From positions 1-36,646 of the forward strand of contig DXJF01000021.1 in NCBI GenBank assembly GCA_019057375.1: a stretch of DNA of 36,646 bases. The letters run 5' to 3'. The position numbers and the translations under genes are program-made. The DNA comes from Candidatus Heimdallarchaeota archaeon. GTDB lineage: Archaea; Asgardarchaeota; Heimdallarchaeia; Heimdallarchaeales; Heimdallarchaeaceae. This document shows, in pieces, positions 1-8,265 of this stretch. The stretch's first letter is position 1; every line of letters starts with the position of its first letter. The notes under the pieces were generated by a model, which worked only from the letters and a program-made list of their open reading frames with translations, was not told the origin of the DNA and did no database searches.

Positions 1-144
1 TGCGCCACCAGGATAGAATTCTCCTATTGGCTCGTCTTCTACTGGACCTGCGCCACCAGGTCTGAATTCTCCTATTGGCTCATCTTCTACTGGACCTGCG
101 CCACCAGGTCTGAATTCTCCTATTGGCTCATCTTCTACTGGACC
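1..144. repeat. Direct tandem repeat, 48-bp unit, at least 3 copies (1-48, 49-96, 97-144)
   Basis: Units 49-96 and 97-144 are identical. Unit 1-48 differs by one synonymous change (GAT/GAC) and one whole codon (AGA/TAT on the coding strand). There are no spacers. Confidence 0.97.
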
Positions 145-228
145 TGAATTGACGACCAAGATTGTGCTCGCTATTAGAGCAACCATAGTTGTTACAAATA
201 ATACTCCAATAATTTTTTTTACTTTCAT
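1..228 (-). CDS. Signal-peptide/anchor protein with tandem 16-aa repeats (3'-truncated by window edge; not in ORF track)
   Basis: Manual translation from ATG 228: MKVKKIIGVLFVTTMVALIASTILVVNS-(GPVEDEPIGEFRPGGA)x2-GPVEDEPIGEFYPGGA, open to position 1. Purine-rich GGAAGAG just upstream; TATA-like TTTAAATA at 286-279. Confidence 0.85.
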   Translation of the reverse strand, partial: MKVKKIIGVLFVTTMVALIASTILVVNSGPVEDEPIGEFRPGGAGPVEDEPIGEFRPGGAGPVEDEPIGEFYPGGA

Positions 229-278
229 TTAACTCTTCCACCAGCTAAATTGAACTCAAGTTTACCTTTTTGTATGAA

Positions 279-337
279 TATTTAAACATTGTTACGAATT
301 TCCATGTTTACCGATTCCGTGGAAATTAGTAACATTG
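279..337 (-). promoter_or_regulatory. TATA box (286-279) with abutting inverted repeat (287-304 / 320-337), putative operator
   Basis: Arms CATTGTTACGAATTTCCA and TGGAAATTAGTAACATTG pair at 16 of 18 positions around a 15-nt spacer, directly upstream of TTTAAATA on the minus strand. Confidence 0.55.
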
Positions 338-766: not shown

Positions 767-3097
767 CTACTGGTCGTCTAAATCATCAAGCTTTCTAATA
801 ATGGAATTCTGATATGGACTTTCTATTCTAGCTAGTTCTAGAAGAAAATCTTTTACTTTGTCAGATTGAATACTAAGCAGTAAATCTACTAAACCACCTC
901 TCAATCTAAAATCTTCTCTAACTTGAGAATTAGAATTATACACTCTAAAAGAACTAGAAATGTTCTGTCTATCAGTCCTCGTTTCTTTCTCATTAAATTT
1001 CTTTTTACAATAAGAAAGAACTTGATCTATTGCTTTACTATTTCCAATTTTTGCAAGTTCGCCTAATACAAAAATAGTAGCTTTCTCACTTTCAACTGAA
1101 ATTGAATCTATATCTATTGACAGCAGATATTCAATAGCTTTACTGTTTCCATTAAGAGCCAACTTTCTTAAGGAAAAAATAGACTTTGAACTATGTTCAT
1201 TATTTTTTTCCACTATTTCAATAAGTAAATCAATAGCTAAGTTATTTTCATCCAAAAGTGAGATAATTCTACTTTTATCTACGCTTCTACTTAGAATTTC
1301 ATCATATTCTTCTCTTGAAGTATAAACATCAATTTCATCATCTTCTAAAAACATATTTCTAAGAACTTGAATTACTTGCTCCTCTTCTATTTTACACAGT
1401 TCTTCCCAGTTACCAGTTCGAAGATTGTATGCGATCTGTTCTTCATGTGTTTCTGGAAGCCAATTTCTTCTTATTATTTCAGTAAATGCAAATTTAGATA
1501 ATTGTTCTTCTGCTTCTCTAATCACATTGTAGAGAAAAGAACGTAAACCGTTGTCATCTAAATTAACTACTCTTTCAAGAATTTCTTTTCTAGAAGTAAA
1601 ATCTGTAGTTTTCTGGAATTTTGAAATGTATTCTTCTAAATCTTCTGAATCTCCTTCAATTCCTAATACAAATAAATCAATTAATATTTTATTATTCTTC
1701 GAATACTCTATAAGAGAATATTTCAGTAATGCTTTTAGATACTGGGAAAATCTTTCATCTAATTTCTCAAAAGTAAAGAAGTTTTGAAAGAATAATGTTA
1801 ATCTTTGAAAACACTCTTCTGTTTCTTCTGGTTTGTAAAAAATCGTCCAACGGGTAATAAGGAGTGCAAGAAAAATATCAACTACCTCTTCATAGAAAGG
1901 TTCTTCATATTGATTTATCCAGAAAGTATGACCAATCAAGCTCCTGAAATTTGATTCAAAAATGTCAAAACTTCTTTTAAAAAGACCATCAAGATATTGA
2001 AGATGGAATTTTACAAATGGTGTCTCAATTCCCTCGATAAACTCTCCAAATTCTTGAAAATCATGACCTAGAAGTATTGCTGGTTCATAGTAAAAACTTA
2101 CTATCCCAGACATGGGTTTATCTTCATCAAATGAGCGATTTTTGAAAATCTGTAATAATAGATATAAGGTCATAACAACTATGTTCTTGCTATTTGCTTC
2201 TTCCCCATTCTTCTCTAAATATAGATTTATACTTTGTTTAGTTTTGTCATTCCCATAGTGTATCCCCCAGAGGTCTTCATCATTTTGATAATGTATCAAA
2301 TTATCTAAATCGACTCTTCCTTTATTAAAGAAATACCCTCCATTTTGTTGATTTCTACCGTAGGTTAACAAAATTTCTCTAAAAGGAAAATTTTCAACTA
2401 GAGCTTTGTTTTCTTCAACTATTTTTTCTACTTCTTCTATTAGTATCATAATTGCTTTAGACTCCCTCTCTTTTTCTCTTGCTCCTTCAGAAATAGATCT
2501 ACGCCCAATGTATCCAAATATGGAGACCTTTAGGAATAATTTGTTTAAACGATACATAAAGTCGGTTCCTTGAGATTCTTTGAAGAATTCTGCTGATCTT
2601 AATTTCGCTTCAGTTTGAGAAATAATTTCAGCTTGAATTGATTCCCAGTCTTCATATCCAGATCTAGATAAAAATGTTACAGGATGCATACCAACTGCGG
2701 AAATCTCAAAGAATGCTTCTTCATTTTCTTTTGCATAGAATCTATATGAACACCTCATGAACGCATATAATAAAGTAGGAAATCGTTCCACAAATTGGTT
2801 TATTAAAATACAAAGTTCTAATGATATATCTTCTGAATAATTCCAGTTTTCTAAACCTTCTAGCTCTTTCTGTAAATTCTCTAGAAAGGATTCGTTTACC
2901 TCTTTATCTTCTTCTGAAATGAGACTTATTTTAGCTATTTCTATAGCTTCTCTAAGATAATGGATAAAATGAGTAAAAGTAGGATAAGACTTAGGTTTTG
3001 CAATTAACTCTGAATCAAGAAATTGCTTAATTAAGATACAAGGAGGTATTTCAGATTTAATTAGACCAGCATAATCCATTCGTAACAAAAAATACAT
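767..3097 (-). CDS. Large helical hypothetical protein with C-terminal HEAT/ARM-like repeats
   Basis: 776-aa ORF. Near-repeats KLALNGNSKAIEYLL and ELAKIGNSKAIDQVL resemble PBS-lyase HEAT repeats; no catalytic motif recognised. Confidence 0.6.
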   Translation of the reverse strand: MYFLLRMDYAGLIKSEIPPCILIKQFLDSELIAKPKSYPTFTHFIHYLREAIEIAKISLISEEDKEVNESFLENLQKELEGLENWNYSEDISLELCILINQFVERFPTLLYAFMRCSYRFYAKENEEAFFEISAVGMHPVTFLSRSGYEDWESIQAEIISQTEAKLRSAEFFKESQGTDFMYRLNKLFLKVSIFGYIGRRSISEGAREKERESKAIMILIEEVEKIVEENKALVENFPFREILLTYGRNQQNGGYFFNKGRVDLDNLIHYQNDEDLWGIHYGNDKTKQSINLYLEKNGEEANSKNIVVMTLYLLLQIFKNRSFDEDKPMSGIVSFYYEPAILLGHDFQEFGEFIEGIETPFVKFHLQYLDGLFKRSFDIFESNFRSLIGHTFWINQYEEPFYEEVVDIFLALLITRWTIFYKPEETEECFQRLTLFFQNFFTFEKLDERFSQYLKALLKYSLIEYSKNNKILIDLFVLGIEGDSEDLEEYISKFQKTTDFTSRKEILERVVNLDDNGLRSFLYNVIREAEEQLSKFAFTEIIRRNWLPETHEEQIAYNLRTGNWEELCKIEEEQVIQVLRNMFLEDDEIDVYTSREEYDEILSRSVDKSRIISLLDENNLAIDLLIEIVEKNNEHSSKSIFSLRKLALNGNSKAIEYLLSIDIDSISVESEKATIFVLGELAKIGNSKAIDQVLSYCKKKFNEKETRTDRQNISSSFRVYNSNSQVREDFRLRGGLVDLLLSIQSDKVKDFLLELARIESPYQNSIIRKLDDLDDQ

Positions 3098-3394: not shown

Positions 3395-3952
3395 ATGAAT
3401 AAATCAAAAAAAATCGGTTTGAGTTTGTTTATGCTTTCGATTTTTGCTTTAACAGCACTAGCTTCCGCAGAAACAACCTCAGCAAACGCTAATGGTTTTG
3501 TACTTGGGATCGTTTTCACTGTCGATGGAATAGATTATTACATGGCAGGTGCGCCTGATGGTCCTAATGGTGAATTCGATGTTCCTGGTCATTACTGGGT
3601 ACAAGCTGGACCTAATCAGTTCGTTGGTAAGCACTATAACACTGGTTCTTTTGGAATGCCACAATTTTGGTCTTCTGACGCAGCTGATGGTGAACTCCTT
3701 TACATAGTACATGATATTATCGATACATGGAGTCCAGAAAAAGCTGAAGCATATGCTAGCAGAGGATATGTCCACAGACATGAAATGAGAGCTGTTGATG
3801 GTGGAGCTGAACATCCTGATAAAGTTATTTGGCTCAAGCATACAGCCAGAACAGCCTTCAACTTCGATGGTGGACCAATGCCAGGAATGGCACACTATGT
3901 AACTCCTGGAGTAGACTTAGCCTTCATGAACAACTATTTTATGCCTTATTAA
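3395..3952 (+). CDS. Secreted His/Trp/Gly-rich hypothetical protein
   Basis: 185-aa ORF with a Sec-type signal peptide (KSKK, hydrophobic core, ALA-SA) and multiple His motifs (GHYW, KHYN, HRHE, KHT). Confidence 0.75.
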   Translation: MNKSKKIGLSLFMLSIFALTALASAETTSANANGFVLGIVFTVDGIDYYMAGAPDGPNGEFDVPGHYWVQAGPNQFVGKHYNTGSFGMPQFWSSDAADGELLYIVHDIIDTWSPEKAEAYASRGYVHRHEMRAVDGGAEHPDKVIWLKHTARTAFNFDGGPMPGMAHYVTPGVDLAFMNNYFMPY

Positions 3953-4166: not shown

Positions 4167-5627
4167 TTGAGATGGGATAAGAATATAATAAAAATCTCAC
4201 TGTTTCTTCTTCTTTCTCTATCTTTCTTCACTTCTAACAAACAGAATATAATTGATGGAATAGGTCCCGAATCTTTCCATATTGACAATATCTTAACAAT
4301 AGTAACTTCTTTAGATACTACAACAACTAATGCATTTAAAACACACTTCTTAGAGACACCTCAAGCAGTTAATCTTGGAATTACTGATATTGATTTCAGA
4401 CATGTTACAACAGAAGATGGATGGAAAAAACTTCTGCAAGATCCATCTAAATCTGTTGATTTAGCTTGGGGGTTTTCACATGATTATTTTTACAATTTAG
4501 AAGAATGGAATCTTCTTAAGCCTATAACTAATTTCACACTTTTGGATTACATCAATGAAAATATCCCAGATGGTATATGTGGACTAGAAACAAAACACTA
4601 TAATGACTCTGAATTAGTCTGGTTTGGAACTGCCTTTAGAACATATGGATATACAGTTAATCATGATTTTTTGGACACATATGGGTTACCCGTTCCTATA
4701 ACATGGGAAGAATTAGCAAGTCCCATATATTATATTAACTCTGATGTTAATTCCATAGGCATGAGTGATCCACCTCTGAGCACAACGAATACAAGAATTT
4801 ATCAAACTGTTCTTCAAGCATATGGTTGGGAGGATGGCTGGTCAATTTTGACTAGAATGGGTGCTAACGCAGGTATCTATCCTGGTTCAGTTGCTACTCG
4901 TGCTGCAGTAGTTTTTGGTGAGGTTGGAATAGCTATGACTTCTTCATCTTATGGTTTTATTGCTATGAGAGAAAATACTGATACTGAGTTTATCATACCT
5001 CAGGATAATGCAGTTATTGATTTCTGTGACATATCTCTTGGAATTAATTGTGACAATCAAGAAGATGCTGAAGCGTTTTTGCAGTTTGTTGTTTCTCCCG
5101 AAGGACAAGCTATTTGGTTAACCGAGGGAATTGATCAATTTCCTCTTAATGAACATGCCTTTAATACTACTTTAGGTCAAACAAGAACAGATATCTATAA
5201 ATTTTTCAATAGTTTATATGGTACTATCTTCCTTTATTTCAATTACAGTTTAGCTCAATCGACTTTAGAAGAAACGGTATACTATTTTCATGATACCATT
5301 GTTGTAGAACATACTCTCTTACAAGAAACTTGGGGAATTATGGTTCAGATGTTGAGAAATAGTACTATAAATTCAACTTATTTCGTAGAATTAGTATATA
5401 GATTAGGAGCTCTTCCTGAAAATCTTGAATGTTACGATTACGATATTTATTATGGATTTCCTTGTCCGAGTTGGAGCAATTTTGCAAAAGAAAAATATCA
5501 GACAATAATTGATGAGCTAACAAGACTAAATGAACCTCAAGAAACTAGTACATCTATTGAGGTGACAATTATTTTACTTTTTACAATTTCAGTTGTACTA
5601 AACTTGAGAAACAAAAAAAAGAAATAA
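4167..5627 (+). CDS. ABC transporter substrate-binding protein (iron/thiamine-type), C-terminally membrane anchored
   Basis: Family-like motifs NHDFL..YGLPVPITWEELA, DPPLSTTN and FLQFVVSPEGQAIW; N-terminal signal; C-terminal TM plus KKKK tail. No permease or ATPase gene adjacent. Confidence 0.8.
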   Translation: MRWDKNIIKISLFLLLSLSFFTSNKQNIIDGIGPESFHIDNILTIVTSLDTTTTNAFKTHFLETPQAVNLGITDIDFRHVTTEDGWKKLLQDPSKSVDLAWGFSHDYFYNLEEWNLLKPITNFTLLDYINENIPDGICGLETKHYNDSELVWFGTAFRTYGYTVNHDFLDTYGLPVPITWEELASPIYYINSDVNSIGMSDPPLSTTNTRIYQTVLQAYGWEDGWSILTRMGANAGIYPGSVATRAAVVFGEVGIAMTSSSYGFIAMRENTDTEFIIPQDNAVIDFCDISLGINCDNQEDAEAFLQFVVSPEGQAIWLTEGIDQFPLNEHAFNTTLGQTRTDIYKFFNSLYGTIFLYFNYSLAQSTLEETVYYFHDTIVVEHTLLQETWGIMVQMLRNSTINSTYFVELVYRLGALPENLECYDYDIYYGFPCPSWSNFAKEKYQTIIDELTRLNEPQETSTSIEVTIILLFTISVVLNLRNKKKK

Positions 5628-7093: not shown

Positions 7094-8265
7094 TTATAGT
7101 TCTGTTTTTTTACTTTTAATTGCTAGTGTCAAAACTACTAAAGGTACAAGAATAGCGATTAAAGATATAGGTGTAGGTTCAATGTATCCTTCTTCAGCAG
7201 CTCTTATAATAAAATCAACAGCTAAGACCACGAAAGGCCATTCAGTTTCAGATAAGCTAGATGTAAAAACAGTCACAATATCATGATCTGGAATCACGTA
7301 TATTATCTGTCCTGCCCAACCTAAAGCTAAGTATGAATTAATCTGTGGATAAACCCACCATTGATATCCATAGCTGGTCCAATCAGTTAAAGTAACAGTA
7401 TCATTTGAAGAATGAAGGATCCATTCTTCTGGAACTATTTGAGTTCCATTCCAAGTACCATTGTTCAGATAGAGAAATCCAAATTTAGCCATATCCATAG
7501 GTAGTAGCTGAAGATTAGCACCTCCAAAGTAAATACCTTGAGGATCTTGAGACCAAAATGCATCAGAAAAACCAAGAGGTCCAAAGATATGCTCATTTGC
7601 ATAAACAAAAGTGGATTTATTTGTTGCTTTTTCAATAATTGCTGAGAGTAAATGAGAACCTCCGGAATTGTAATTAAAGATAGTTCCTGGTTCTTCGACC
7701 ATTGTTCTGCTTAAAACAAAATCTACCCAATTAGCACTTCCTGTCATCTGTGAGAAACTATTTTCTGGAGAAAAATAGGAAATATCTGATTCTCTCCAAG
7801 AGATTCCTGATGTCATGGTTAGTAAATGAGAAAGAGTAATATTTTCCTTTAATTCGATGTTGGGAACTGTGACATTAACAAAGAAATCTAATATTTTCTG
7901 ATTAACACTTTCTATGTATCCTTCCTCTATCGCTATTCCAATTAAGGTTGAGATAAAACTTTTAGTTACAGAATAAACAGGATGAAGCGTTCCAGCACTA
8001 TAATAACTAAGGTACTCTTCAACAACCAGATAGCCATTTTTCACAATTAGAACACTATAGTATTGTAGTTATTTTCATGAATGTATTCAAACATGCTGTT
8101 TATTCTTTGTTCATTCATCCCAACATCCTCGAATGAAGCACTTTGCCAATCATCTGTTGGCCAATAATCTCGCTCTATTGATGTTCCATTTGTGACATAA
8201 TTATTGTTAGTTTGTATAATTAAAAGATAAAAAGCTAGAAGAAATGTAATTTGCTTCTTATTCAT
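7094..8265 (-). pseudogene. Serine hydrolase (beta-lactamase/class C-like family), frameshifted
   Basis: ORF 8265-8047 gives the signal peptide and YWPTDDW N-terminus. ORF 8044-7094 carries SVTK, YNSGG, YGYQWW and a C-terminal TM. A 1-nt shift near 8060 restores ...NYN-x-YSVLIVKNGYLVVEEY. Confidence 0.8.

Follow-up and report, generated by a model that had tools for sequence, protein, structure and literature searches.

A predicted exported tandem-repeat protein and its neighbouring tandem Lrp/AsnC-like protein as a candidate two-gene cassette in an Asgard archaeon

What is the role of an archaeal gene whose product appears to consist of a hydrophobic leader and a series of near-identical 16-residue units, and where did such a gene come from? 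The question is raised by the first 228 nucleotides of the window, the whole stretch of 36,646 nucleotides analysed here (C116:1-36646), which belongs to a genome of 159 contigs that is 89% complete. Peptide-based communication is well known in bacteria and eukaryotes, and the Asgard archaea are the closest known relatives of eukaryotes; to our knowledge, no ribosomal peptide signal has been established in Archaea. The sequence-only reading of the window had described a basic and hydrophobic leader followed directly by at least three 16-aa units, and we found these elements on the minus strand as follows.

1 to 228, minus strand: 5' coding part of the predicted exported repeat protein (76 codons, ATG at 226-228)
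145 to 228, minus strand: N-terminal 28 residues (MKVKK, a 21-residue hydrophobic stretch and NS)
1 to 144, minus strand: three 48-nt units (97-144 R-type, 49-96 R-type, 1-48 Y-type)

Every unit in the window has 16 residues, GPVEDEPIGEF(R/Y)PGGA, in the order R, R, Y, and Tandem Repeats Finder reports a period of 48 with 3.0 copies, 95% matches and a score of 264. Units 1 and 2 are identical in DNA. Unit 3 differs from them by a synonymous GAT>GAC change and by the exchange of a whole codon, AGA>TAT, which is indeed the sole non-synonymous difference among the window units, as had been noticed. Since the R-type (GAT..AGA) and Y-type (GAC..TAT) units each carry their own linked synonymous marker, they represent two propagated unit types and not one mutating codon. 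The idea of a single hypervariable codon thus describes the window units correctly, but the sister contig C138 adds an I>V replacement and two more synonymous changes, and in orthologues the variation extends over all 2-7 residues between PIG and (P)GGA.

The N-terminus shows small residues at -3/-1 right before the first unit, a layout that recurs in all orthologues, and would be either a cleaved Sec signal peptide or an uncleaved N-in signal anchor. Because the hydrophobic stretch is 21 residues long with nearly no polar c-region, a membrane anchor fits as well as a cleaved signal. Calculated from the sequence, the net charge of a unit is -3 to -4 and the Gly+Pro content is 44%. A lipobox or class III (pilin-type) signal was rejected, as most members have no Cys and there is no K/R-G cleavage motif, and the spacing is incompatible with the RTX-type GGxGxD calcium repeat. 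The plus-strand frame across the repeat is open, but has no start, promoter or conservation pattern.

The gene runs off the window, as had been stated, because contig C116 ends at window position 1. When we searched the genome for the repeat, it was found at one further site only, the first 110 nt of contig C138.

C138, locus L028:1-110, with the stop TGA at 111-113: 3' remainder of the repeat gene, read in frame
C138:512-1921, same strand as the repeat gene: the genome's own copy of the tandem Lrp/AsnC-like regulator gene, about 400 nt past the repeat gene stop

Read in frame, C138 encodes the end of an R-type unit, a Y-type unit with the I>V replacement, a Y-type unit and TGA, and therefore contributes two more full units with a stop at the unit boundary. 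As the order R-R-Y on one contig and R-Y-Y on the other allows no overlap, the gene has at least six units. The gene order of relatives is fam4, fam2, fam1, regulator, repeat gene, fam19, fam9, fam10 and so on, and the reverse complement of C138 joined to C116 gives exactly this order, indicating an assembly break inside one gene. The Logan contigs of the likely source run also end within the array at the same place; Logan depth is a sum of short unitigs and carries no copy number, so that units are uncountable there. The retrieved remainder has no C-terminal domain or anchor. The earlier concern that the repeats might continue into a folded domain or an anchor is answered by the stop after a full unit on C138 and by the complete orthologues, all of which end 4-9 residues past the last motif, and the concern about an assembly artefact by orthologues that lie within contigs of more than 10 other genomes. 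The gene in the window is real, conserved and single-copy, and is broken only by assembly. Past the stop, at L028 111-155, lies a decayed half-unit (stop-PVKD-stop-PIGAYVI-stop) that is interrupted by TGA and TAA in frame. It resembles the C-terminal tail of orthologues (..DEPIGSH..AYVI), suggesting that the end of the ancestral tail was recently lost in the window's species.

A six-frame search detected the protein in 12 of the genus's 24 other genomes, whereas the 36 genomes sampled from other genera, families and classes gave no match. Many genomes carry the gene complete within a contig, and the complete orthologues consist of a signal-like N-terminus, 1.5-6.5 units, a tail of 4-9 residues and a stop, in agreement with the view that the product is a leader plus repeats alone, encoded by a real gene and predicted to be exported or membrane-inserted. 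A close relative has 1.5 units (G024, L029) and another species has at least eight, in a gene split over two contig ends (G011, L005 and L014), so that unit number differs widely among very close species. Arrays of more than about six units coincide with contig breaks, and the family is therefore probably under-detected in short-read metagenome-assembled genomes. Only six further members were found among 5.8 billion protein clusters, all of 78-94 aa and unnamed. A 201-aa high-GC protein with PVEDEP-like repeats (P0007) was judged a low-complexity look-alike, and ESM Atlas matches to a full-length orthologue, with scores of 0.76-0.77, were unusable.

Comparison of the orthologues revealed an invariant P-x-x-D-(E)-P-(I/L/V)-G, together with (P)GGA in this clade. 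Across species, each of the invariant D, P, I and G positions uses 2-4 synonymous codons, and this synonymous turnover indicates that selection acts on the protein and that the reading frame is fixed; judged from these codons, purifying selection acts on D-x-P-(I/L/V)-G. By contrast, the stretch of 2-7 residues after the motif varies even between species whose regulator is 93-97% identical: EFR/EFY, FY, ELL/DLL and AML/TML by species, and MML and EML in two database homologues. Intact reading frames with conserved promoter, ribosome-binding site and signal segment occur in at least 15 species.

We then examined the partner gene. In every orthologous locus, the next downstream gene is co-directional, lies 350-400 nt off and encodes a regulator of 446-472 aa. 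Pfam recognises only an N-terminal AsnC-type wHTH in it (PF13404/PF13412; PF22451 for the G009 orthologue). In the AlphaFold (AF2) model (pLDDT 80), the wHTH is followed by two beta-alpha-beta-beta-alpha-beta domains with a helical region between them, and the modelled architecture is wHTH-RAM-helical-RAM. A Foldseek search with this model gave a full-length match to the fused double-Lrp protein NirDL (4ch7, E 9e-10) and matches of the N-terminal half to amino-acid-binding Lrp/AsnC/FFRP regulators, with no TPR proteins among the matches. The RAM domains of Lrp/FFRP proteins bind small ligands. With the NirDL/AhbAB siroheme decarboxylases and the Lrp/AsnC (FFRP) regulators, the partner shares the fused double Lrp-like architecture and the AsnC-type wHTH. 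However, the identity is 13%, and the partner has about 150 extra residues and stands in no haem-d1 or alternative haem gene context; moreover, its family has several paralogues per genome across the order, and nearly all examined copies are paired with a secreted protein.

This pairing, with the gene for a secreted protein directly upstream and co-directional, was found in almost every copy examined, whether ancestral or derived, orthologue or paralogue. It is kept in three of four fetched copies of the closed genome G027, in three of four of the closed genome G030, in several copies of G025 and in two of the window's genome. No gene of the FDPP type described below was detected upstream of three fam-0 copies, namely that on C65 of the window's genome, L059 (G030) and the first copy in L062 (G025); the copy on C65 has an unrelated exported protein upstream. 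Adjacency within one genus could be plain synteny, and it is the pairing of paralogues and the pairing across genera alone that argue for function. That the pairing survives duplication and divergence is the main argument that both genes work together.

When we inspected the loci upstream of regulator orthologues and paralogues, the origin of the repeat became apparent. In other genera, and on contig C89 in the genome that holds the window, the gene found upstream codes for a protein of about 150 aa with a signal peptide, a domain and one tail, FDPPGG..D(E/Y)P(I/P)GGG... Intermediate forms exist in the window's genus, in species whose regulator is 56-59% identical: four of the five have an assembled upstream gene (the G017 contig ends first), which encodes a signal segment and some 25 residues alignable to the domain's last strand, and then 2-3 tail units. 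Most of these units are preceded by a single K or R, with the exception of one G005 unit (E). Alignment A1 places the repeat unit on the tail, with an invariant P..P and near-invariant D, G and D columns. On the basis of this alignment and the intermediate forms, the window gene is a domain-less derivative with a multiplied tail loop, and the sequence series indicates that within the window's genus the domain was lost stepwise while the tail loop was multiplied. The window protein shares with the wider family the homologous tail motif, the signal segment and the place upstream of a tandem Lrp-like gene, but nothing is left in it of the beta-sandwich or the terminal strand, and its tail loop is present in at least six copies. 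Even without signalling, this passage within one genus, from a folded secreted protein through a reduced domain with 2-3 tails to a pure tail array, is a clear case in nature of how the tail of a folded protein can give rise to a repeat protein or propeptide.

A 152-aa protein of the ancestral type was modelled as a confident beta-sandwich (pLDDT 89), for which Foldseek found no specific relative in the PDB, but only generic Ig-like or sandwich matches (E>1e-3). In an exhaustive profile search, the family comprised 316 clusters at 50% identity, nearly all of 150-170 aa, with a C-terminus made up of FDPPG, a (D/E)-P element of acidic character and a short hydrophobic strand. Where a source names the protein, it is called hypothetical and comes from Asgard or Heimdallarchaeaceae assemblies, and the family has no Pfam or NCBIfam model; these FDPP-tailed secreted beta-sandwich proteins form an Asgard family that is as yet undescribed. 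The ancestral domain contains the blocks DxDGDG..DD (with a calcium-loop-like DxDGDG), LPSG and NHATESGWY, all absent from the window's protein and its close orthologues. In the models of the wider family, the tail forms a loop and the last strand of the fold, so that it does not have to be a free peptide in these proteins. The window's genome itself contains a second cassette, of the ancestral type, on C89 (L054:6273-8405, minus strand). Its 152-aa predicted exported beta-sandwich protein (L054:7950-8405) ends in FDPPEGDPNYPPGGGVMPGP and is followed, after a gap of 47 nt, by a tandem Lrp-like paralogue of 407 aa; the cassette also has a CheY-type receiver that stands alone (PF00072, E 8e-18) and an Exo_endo_phos protein.

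Upstream of the repeat gene, the window contains the following promoter elements.

237 to 245, minus strand: ribosome-binding region GCTGGTGGA, 8 nt before the ATG and invariant in nine species (alignment A7)
279 to 286, minus strand: conserved archaeal TATA box TTTAAATA, roughly 50 nt before the ATG
291 to 333, no strand: extended palindrome GTTAC-N-TTTCCA-N15-TGGAAA-N-GTAAC, 43 bp, abutting the TATA box

The core TTTCCA-N14/15-TGGAAA lies at the same position in seven of eight orthologues examined. The palindrome might serve as the operator of a dimeric or tandem wHTH protein, and from the sequence of the locus the neighbouring regulator may be the protein that binds it. The shorter core TTCCA-N14-17-TGGAA was tried as a regulon marker and is not diagnostic: it gave 66 matches in the genome against about 10 in shuffles, many of the 66 having no ORF start within 160 nt, and the 5-nt palindrome core alone is non-specific genome-wide.

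Between the stop of the repeat gene and the ATG of the regulator lies a GC-rich, unannotated conserved element of about 200 nt (C138, L028:176-372, plus strand) with the invariant blocks ATCGCCAGAAAACCCCACCCCCTTTCCTC, CAAGGGGTCAAACC and AGAGGUCUA. Folding of each species separately gave at least two hairpins with covariation. In hairpin A, the GAGGUC loop is conserved and every one of the six inner pairs occurs as 2-4 pair types; its z-scores are -2.6 to -4.4 against mononucleotide shuffles, and the G-U pairs point to the sense strand. When MAFFT alignments of the spacer were folded with RNAalifold, only a weak consensus resulted, because the variable stems are misaligned, and folding per species was used instead. 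The element is single-copy and present in 18 of the 24 other genomes of the genus; BLAST found none outside the genus, and Rfam gave no match at E<=1 on three cassette loci. These features make it a candidate structured RNA, which might act as a leader of the regulator gene, as an element in the 3'UTR of the repeat gene or as a separate sRNA. Among public sequencing runs, no RNA run with the locus is listed. The 14-mer CAAGGGGTCAAACC also occurs alone in G010 (L048:1441-1454), where it closely follows a paralogous cassette and precedes a PAS/histidine-kinase-like ORF.

The architecture of a leader and repeated cores had been compared with multi-core RiPP precursors such as those of cyanobactins and fungal repeat precursors. 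A true precursor of this kind, cyanobactin-like or fungal dikaritin-like, would be modified by dedicated enzymes. The conserved motif of 8-9 aa and the (P)GGA on either side of a short variable stretch do resemble recognition sequences around cores, but this stretch has just 2-7 residues, and the pattern fits a motif with a spacer equally. Using Pfam, we found no maturase, YcaO, radical SAM, subtilisin-type or C39 protease, or PCAT/ABC exporter in the window to about 10-11 kb, on C138 or at the syntenic loci, nor any other protease within about 10 kb on either side of the gene, and no C39 domain was found in the 89%-complete genome. We saw no sign of the suggested cut at GG|A or of amidation, and a search for a PHM-type monooxygenase, whose control was uninformative, found none. 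In addition, the N-terminus is of the Sec type and not a cytoplasmic leader, and would take the peptide away from cytoplasmic enzymes. Given that no maturase, C39 exporter or linked peptidase was found, a RiPP cluster is unlikely, and we regard a true multi-core RiPP precursor as very improbable.

A peptidase of another kind stands beside a related cassette: in G027, an exported caspase-fold peptidase (L057:3829-4626; PF00656, E 8.5e-13) directly adjoins an FDPP cassette. The window's genome has a homologue of it on C154 (1529-2407, plus strand), a caspase-fold (Peptidase_C14-like) protein with a signal peptide and the dyad SGHG..DHCFAGG, and a truncated second copy on C61 (1745-2215, plus strand). 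These homologues lie on other contigs, unlinked to the cassettes, and the C14-like peptidase is a candidate processing enzyme only.

Based on the pairing and the conservation of the motif, we tentatively suggest, with a confidence that falls somewhat short of even, that the two genes form a functional cassette in which the exported motif is the active element and the tandem Lrp-like protein is its regulator. Outside the cell, the tail motif would be what acts, whether as a multivalent ligand or in the form of peptides set free from the array, and its multiplication might raise dose or valency; as one close relative has 1.5 units, a high copy number would not be essential. The fast-changing residues between the motifs could provide specificity or be mere spacer. 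Inside the cell, the tandem Lrp-like protein would regulate the cassette, probably via the promoter palindrome, and may respond to the motif. A signalling role, with a cue and its regulator, is plausible. A further-reaching form of this proposal, which we consider doubtful, is a peptide-type circuit for cell-cell or self-sensing, with one to many acidic, Pro-rich and species-typed signals on a Sec-exported precursor, the Lrp-like protein as intracellular receptor and regulator at the promoter palindrome, and the RNA element tuning the ratio of the two genes.

Other readings of the same locus have to be weighed against this. The product could be a non-signalling polymer at the surface or outside the cell, in which a membrane helix carries a disordered acidic brush or a cation-binding coat and the Lrp-like protein regulates transcription only. 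The 21-residue hydrophobic stretch with its minimal c-region, the strongly acidic and Gly/Pro-rich units, the calcium-loop-like motif of the ancestral domain and a unit number that varies freely from 1.5 to at least 8 all agree with such a polymer. What a brush or spacer leaves unexplained is the strict conservation of 8-9 residues with synonymous turnover, the retention of the tail rather than the domain, and the fact that each paralogue has kept its own regulator; we regard this reading as possible, although on the unlikely side. At the opposite end stands a strict precursor of diffusible signals, similar to alpha-factor/KEP or Phr precursors, in which an extracellular protease cuts the array into short identical peptides, strain-typed by their variable residues, that are sensed by the Lrp-like protein after uptake. 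Such a precursor would account for a product of leader and repeats without a domain, and for inter-motif residues that are wholly different among species with nearly identical regulators, although relaxed constraint explains this variability equally. The K or R before most units of the intermediate forms and the C14 peptidase beside one G027 cassette, with its homologues in the window's genome, might supply the cleavage, but no protease is linked to the locus and units of this clade have no conserved protease site between them (R-P or Y-P, then GGA|GP). Similarly, RAM domains bind small ligands, but the regulator fold is that of no known peptide receptor. We therefore consider this strict form unlikely.

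The least credible explanation is that the array is a decaying relic of a secreted beta-sandwich gene, an assembly artefact or the linker of a larger protein. The loss of the domain, the C-terminal half-unit severed by two in-frame stops in this genome and the breakage of the assembly at the array would be expected from it. However, the intact and conserved genes in at least 15 species, the synonymous turnover at invariant residues, the complete arrays inside contigs of other genomes and the stop codon right after the array on C138 speak against it, and this explanation is largely refuted.

Tandem arrays behind a secretion signal are known from fungal Kex2-processed repeat proteins, such as yeast alpha-factor and ustiloxin-type precursors (PMC7329392), and from signal-peptide multi-core precursors of sponges (PMC10945851). 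The window gene, whose signal is predicted from sequence, shares with both groups a secretion signal followed only by short tandem units, a unit number that varies between species, and conserved unit parts beside variable residues. Unlike the Kex2-processed proteins, no orthologue of the window gene has a dibasic KR/RR site between its units, and there is no kexin link. Furthermore, the window gene is archaeal, and its conserved partner is a DNA-binding-type protein instead of modifying enzymes.

Among bacterial systems, the RRNPP pairs of Firmicutes comprise Rap-Phr, PlcR-PapR, NprR-NprX and the phage pair AimR-AimP. As in these pairs, the cassette has a small, predicted Sec-exported propeptide gene adjoining the gene of a cytoplasmic HTH regulator, the C-terminal end of the exported product contains the proposed active element, and pairs duplicate and diverge together. 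The RRNPP receptors, however, consist of HTH and TPR, whereas the cassette regulator has a modelled tandem Lrp/AsnC fold (wHTH and RAM, twice), and the ancestral exported partner of the cassette is a folded protein of 150 aa. If the proposed circuit is true, Archaea would gain their first described ribosomal peptide signalling system, and the cassette would illustrate how a signal can arise when a folded protein's tail is multiplied. The locus is a compact and testable candidate: its small predicted exported product has a sharply delimited conserved motif, and it also offers a dedicated regulator and candidates for an operator and a regulatory RNA. Since such arrays break short-read assemblies, the family is also likely to be under-counted in metagenome-assembled genomes.

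Finally, several ORFs of the window lie between the repeat gene and its conserved neighbours or further along. Directly upstream of the repeat gene is a 776-aa ORF with no Pfam match (767-3097, minus strand). This ORF and that at 3395-3952 are absent in most syntenic loci examined, G024 alone matching 3395-3952, and together they resemble an insertion specific to this lineage, placed between the repeat gene and its conserved neighbours. The ORF at 4761-5627 (plus strand) matches only the C-terminal part of solute-binding-protein models, and that at 7094-7816 (minus strand) partially matches a beta-lactamase-family model, with 240 aa against about 390 aa in relatives; both may be truncated genes or have mis-called starts.
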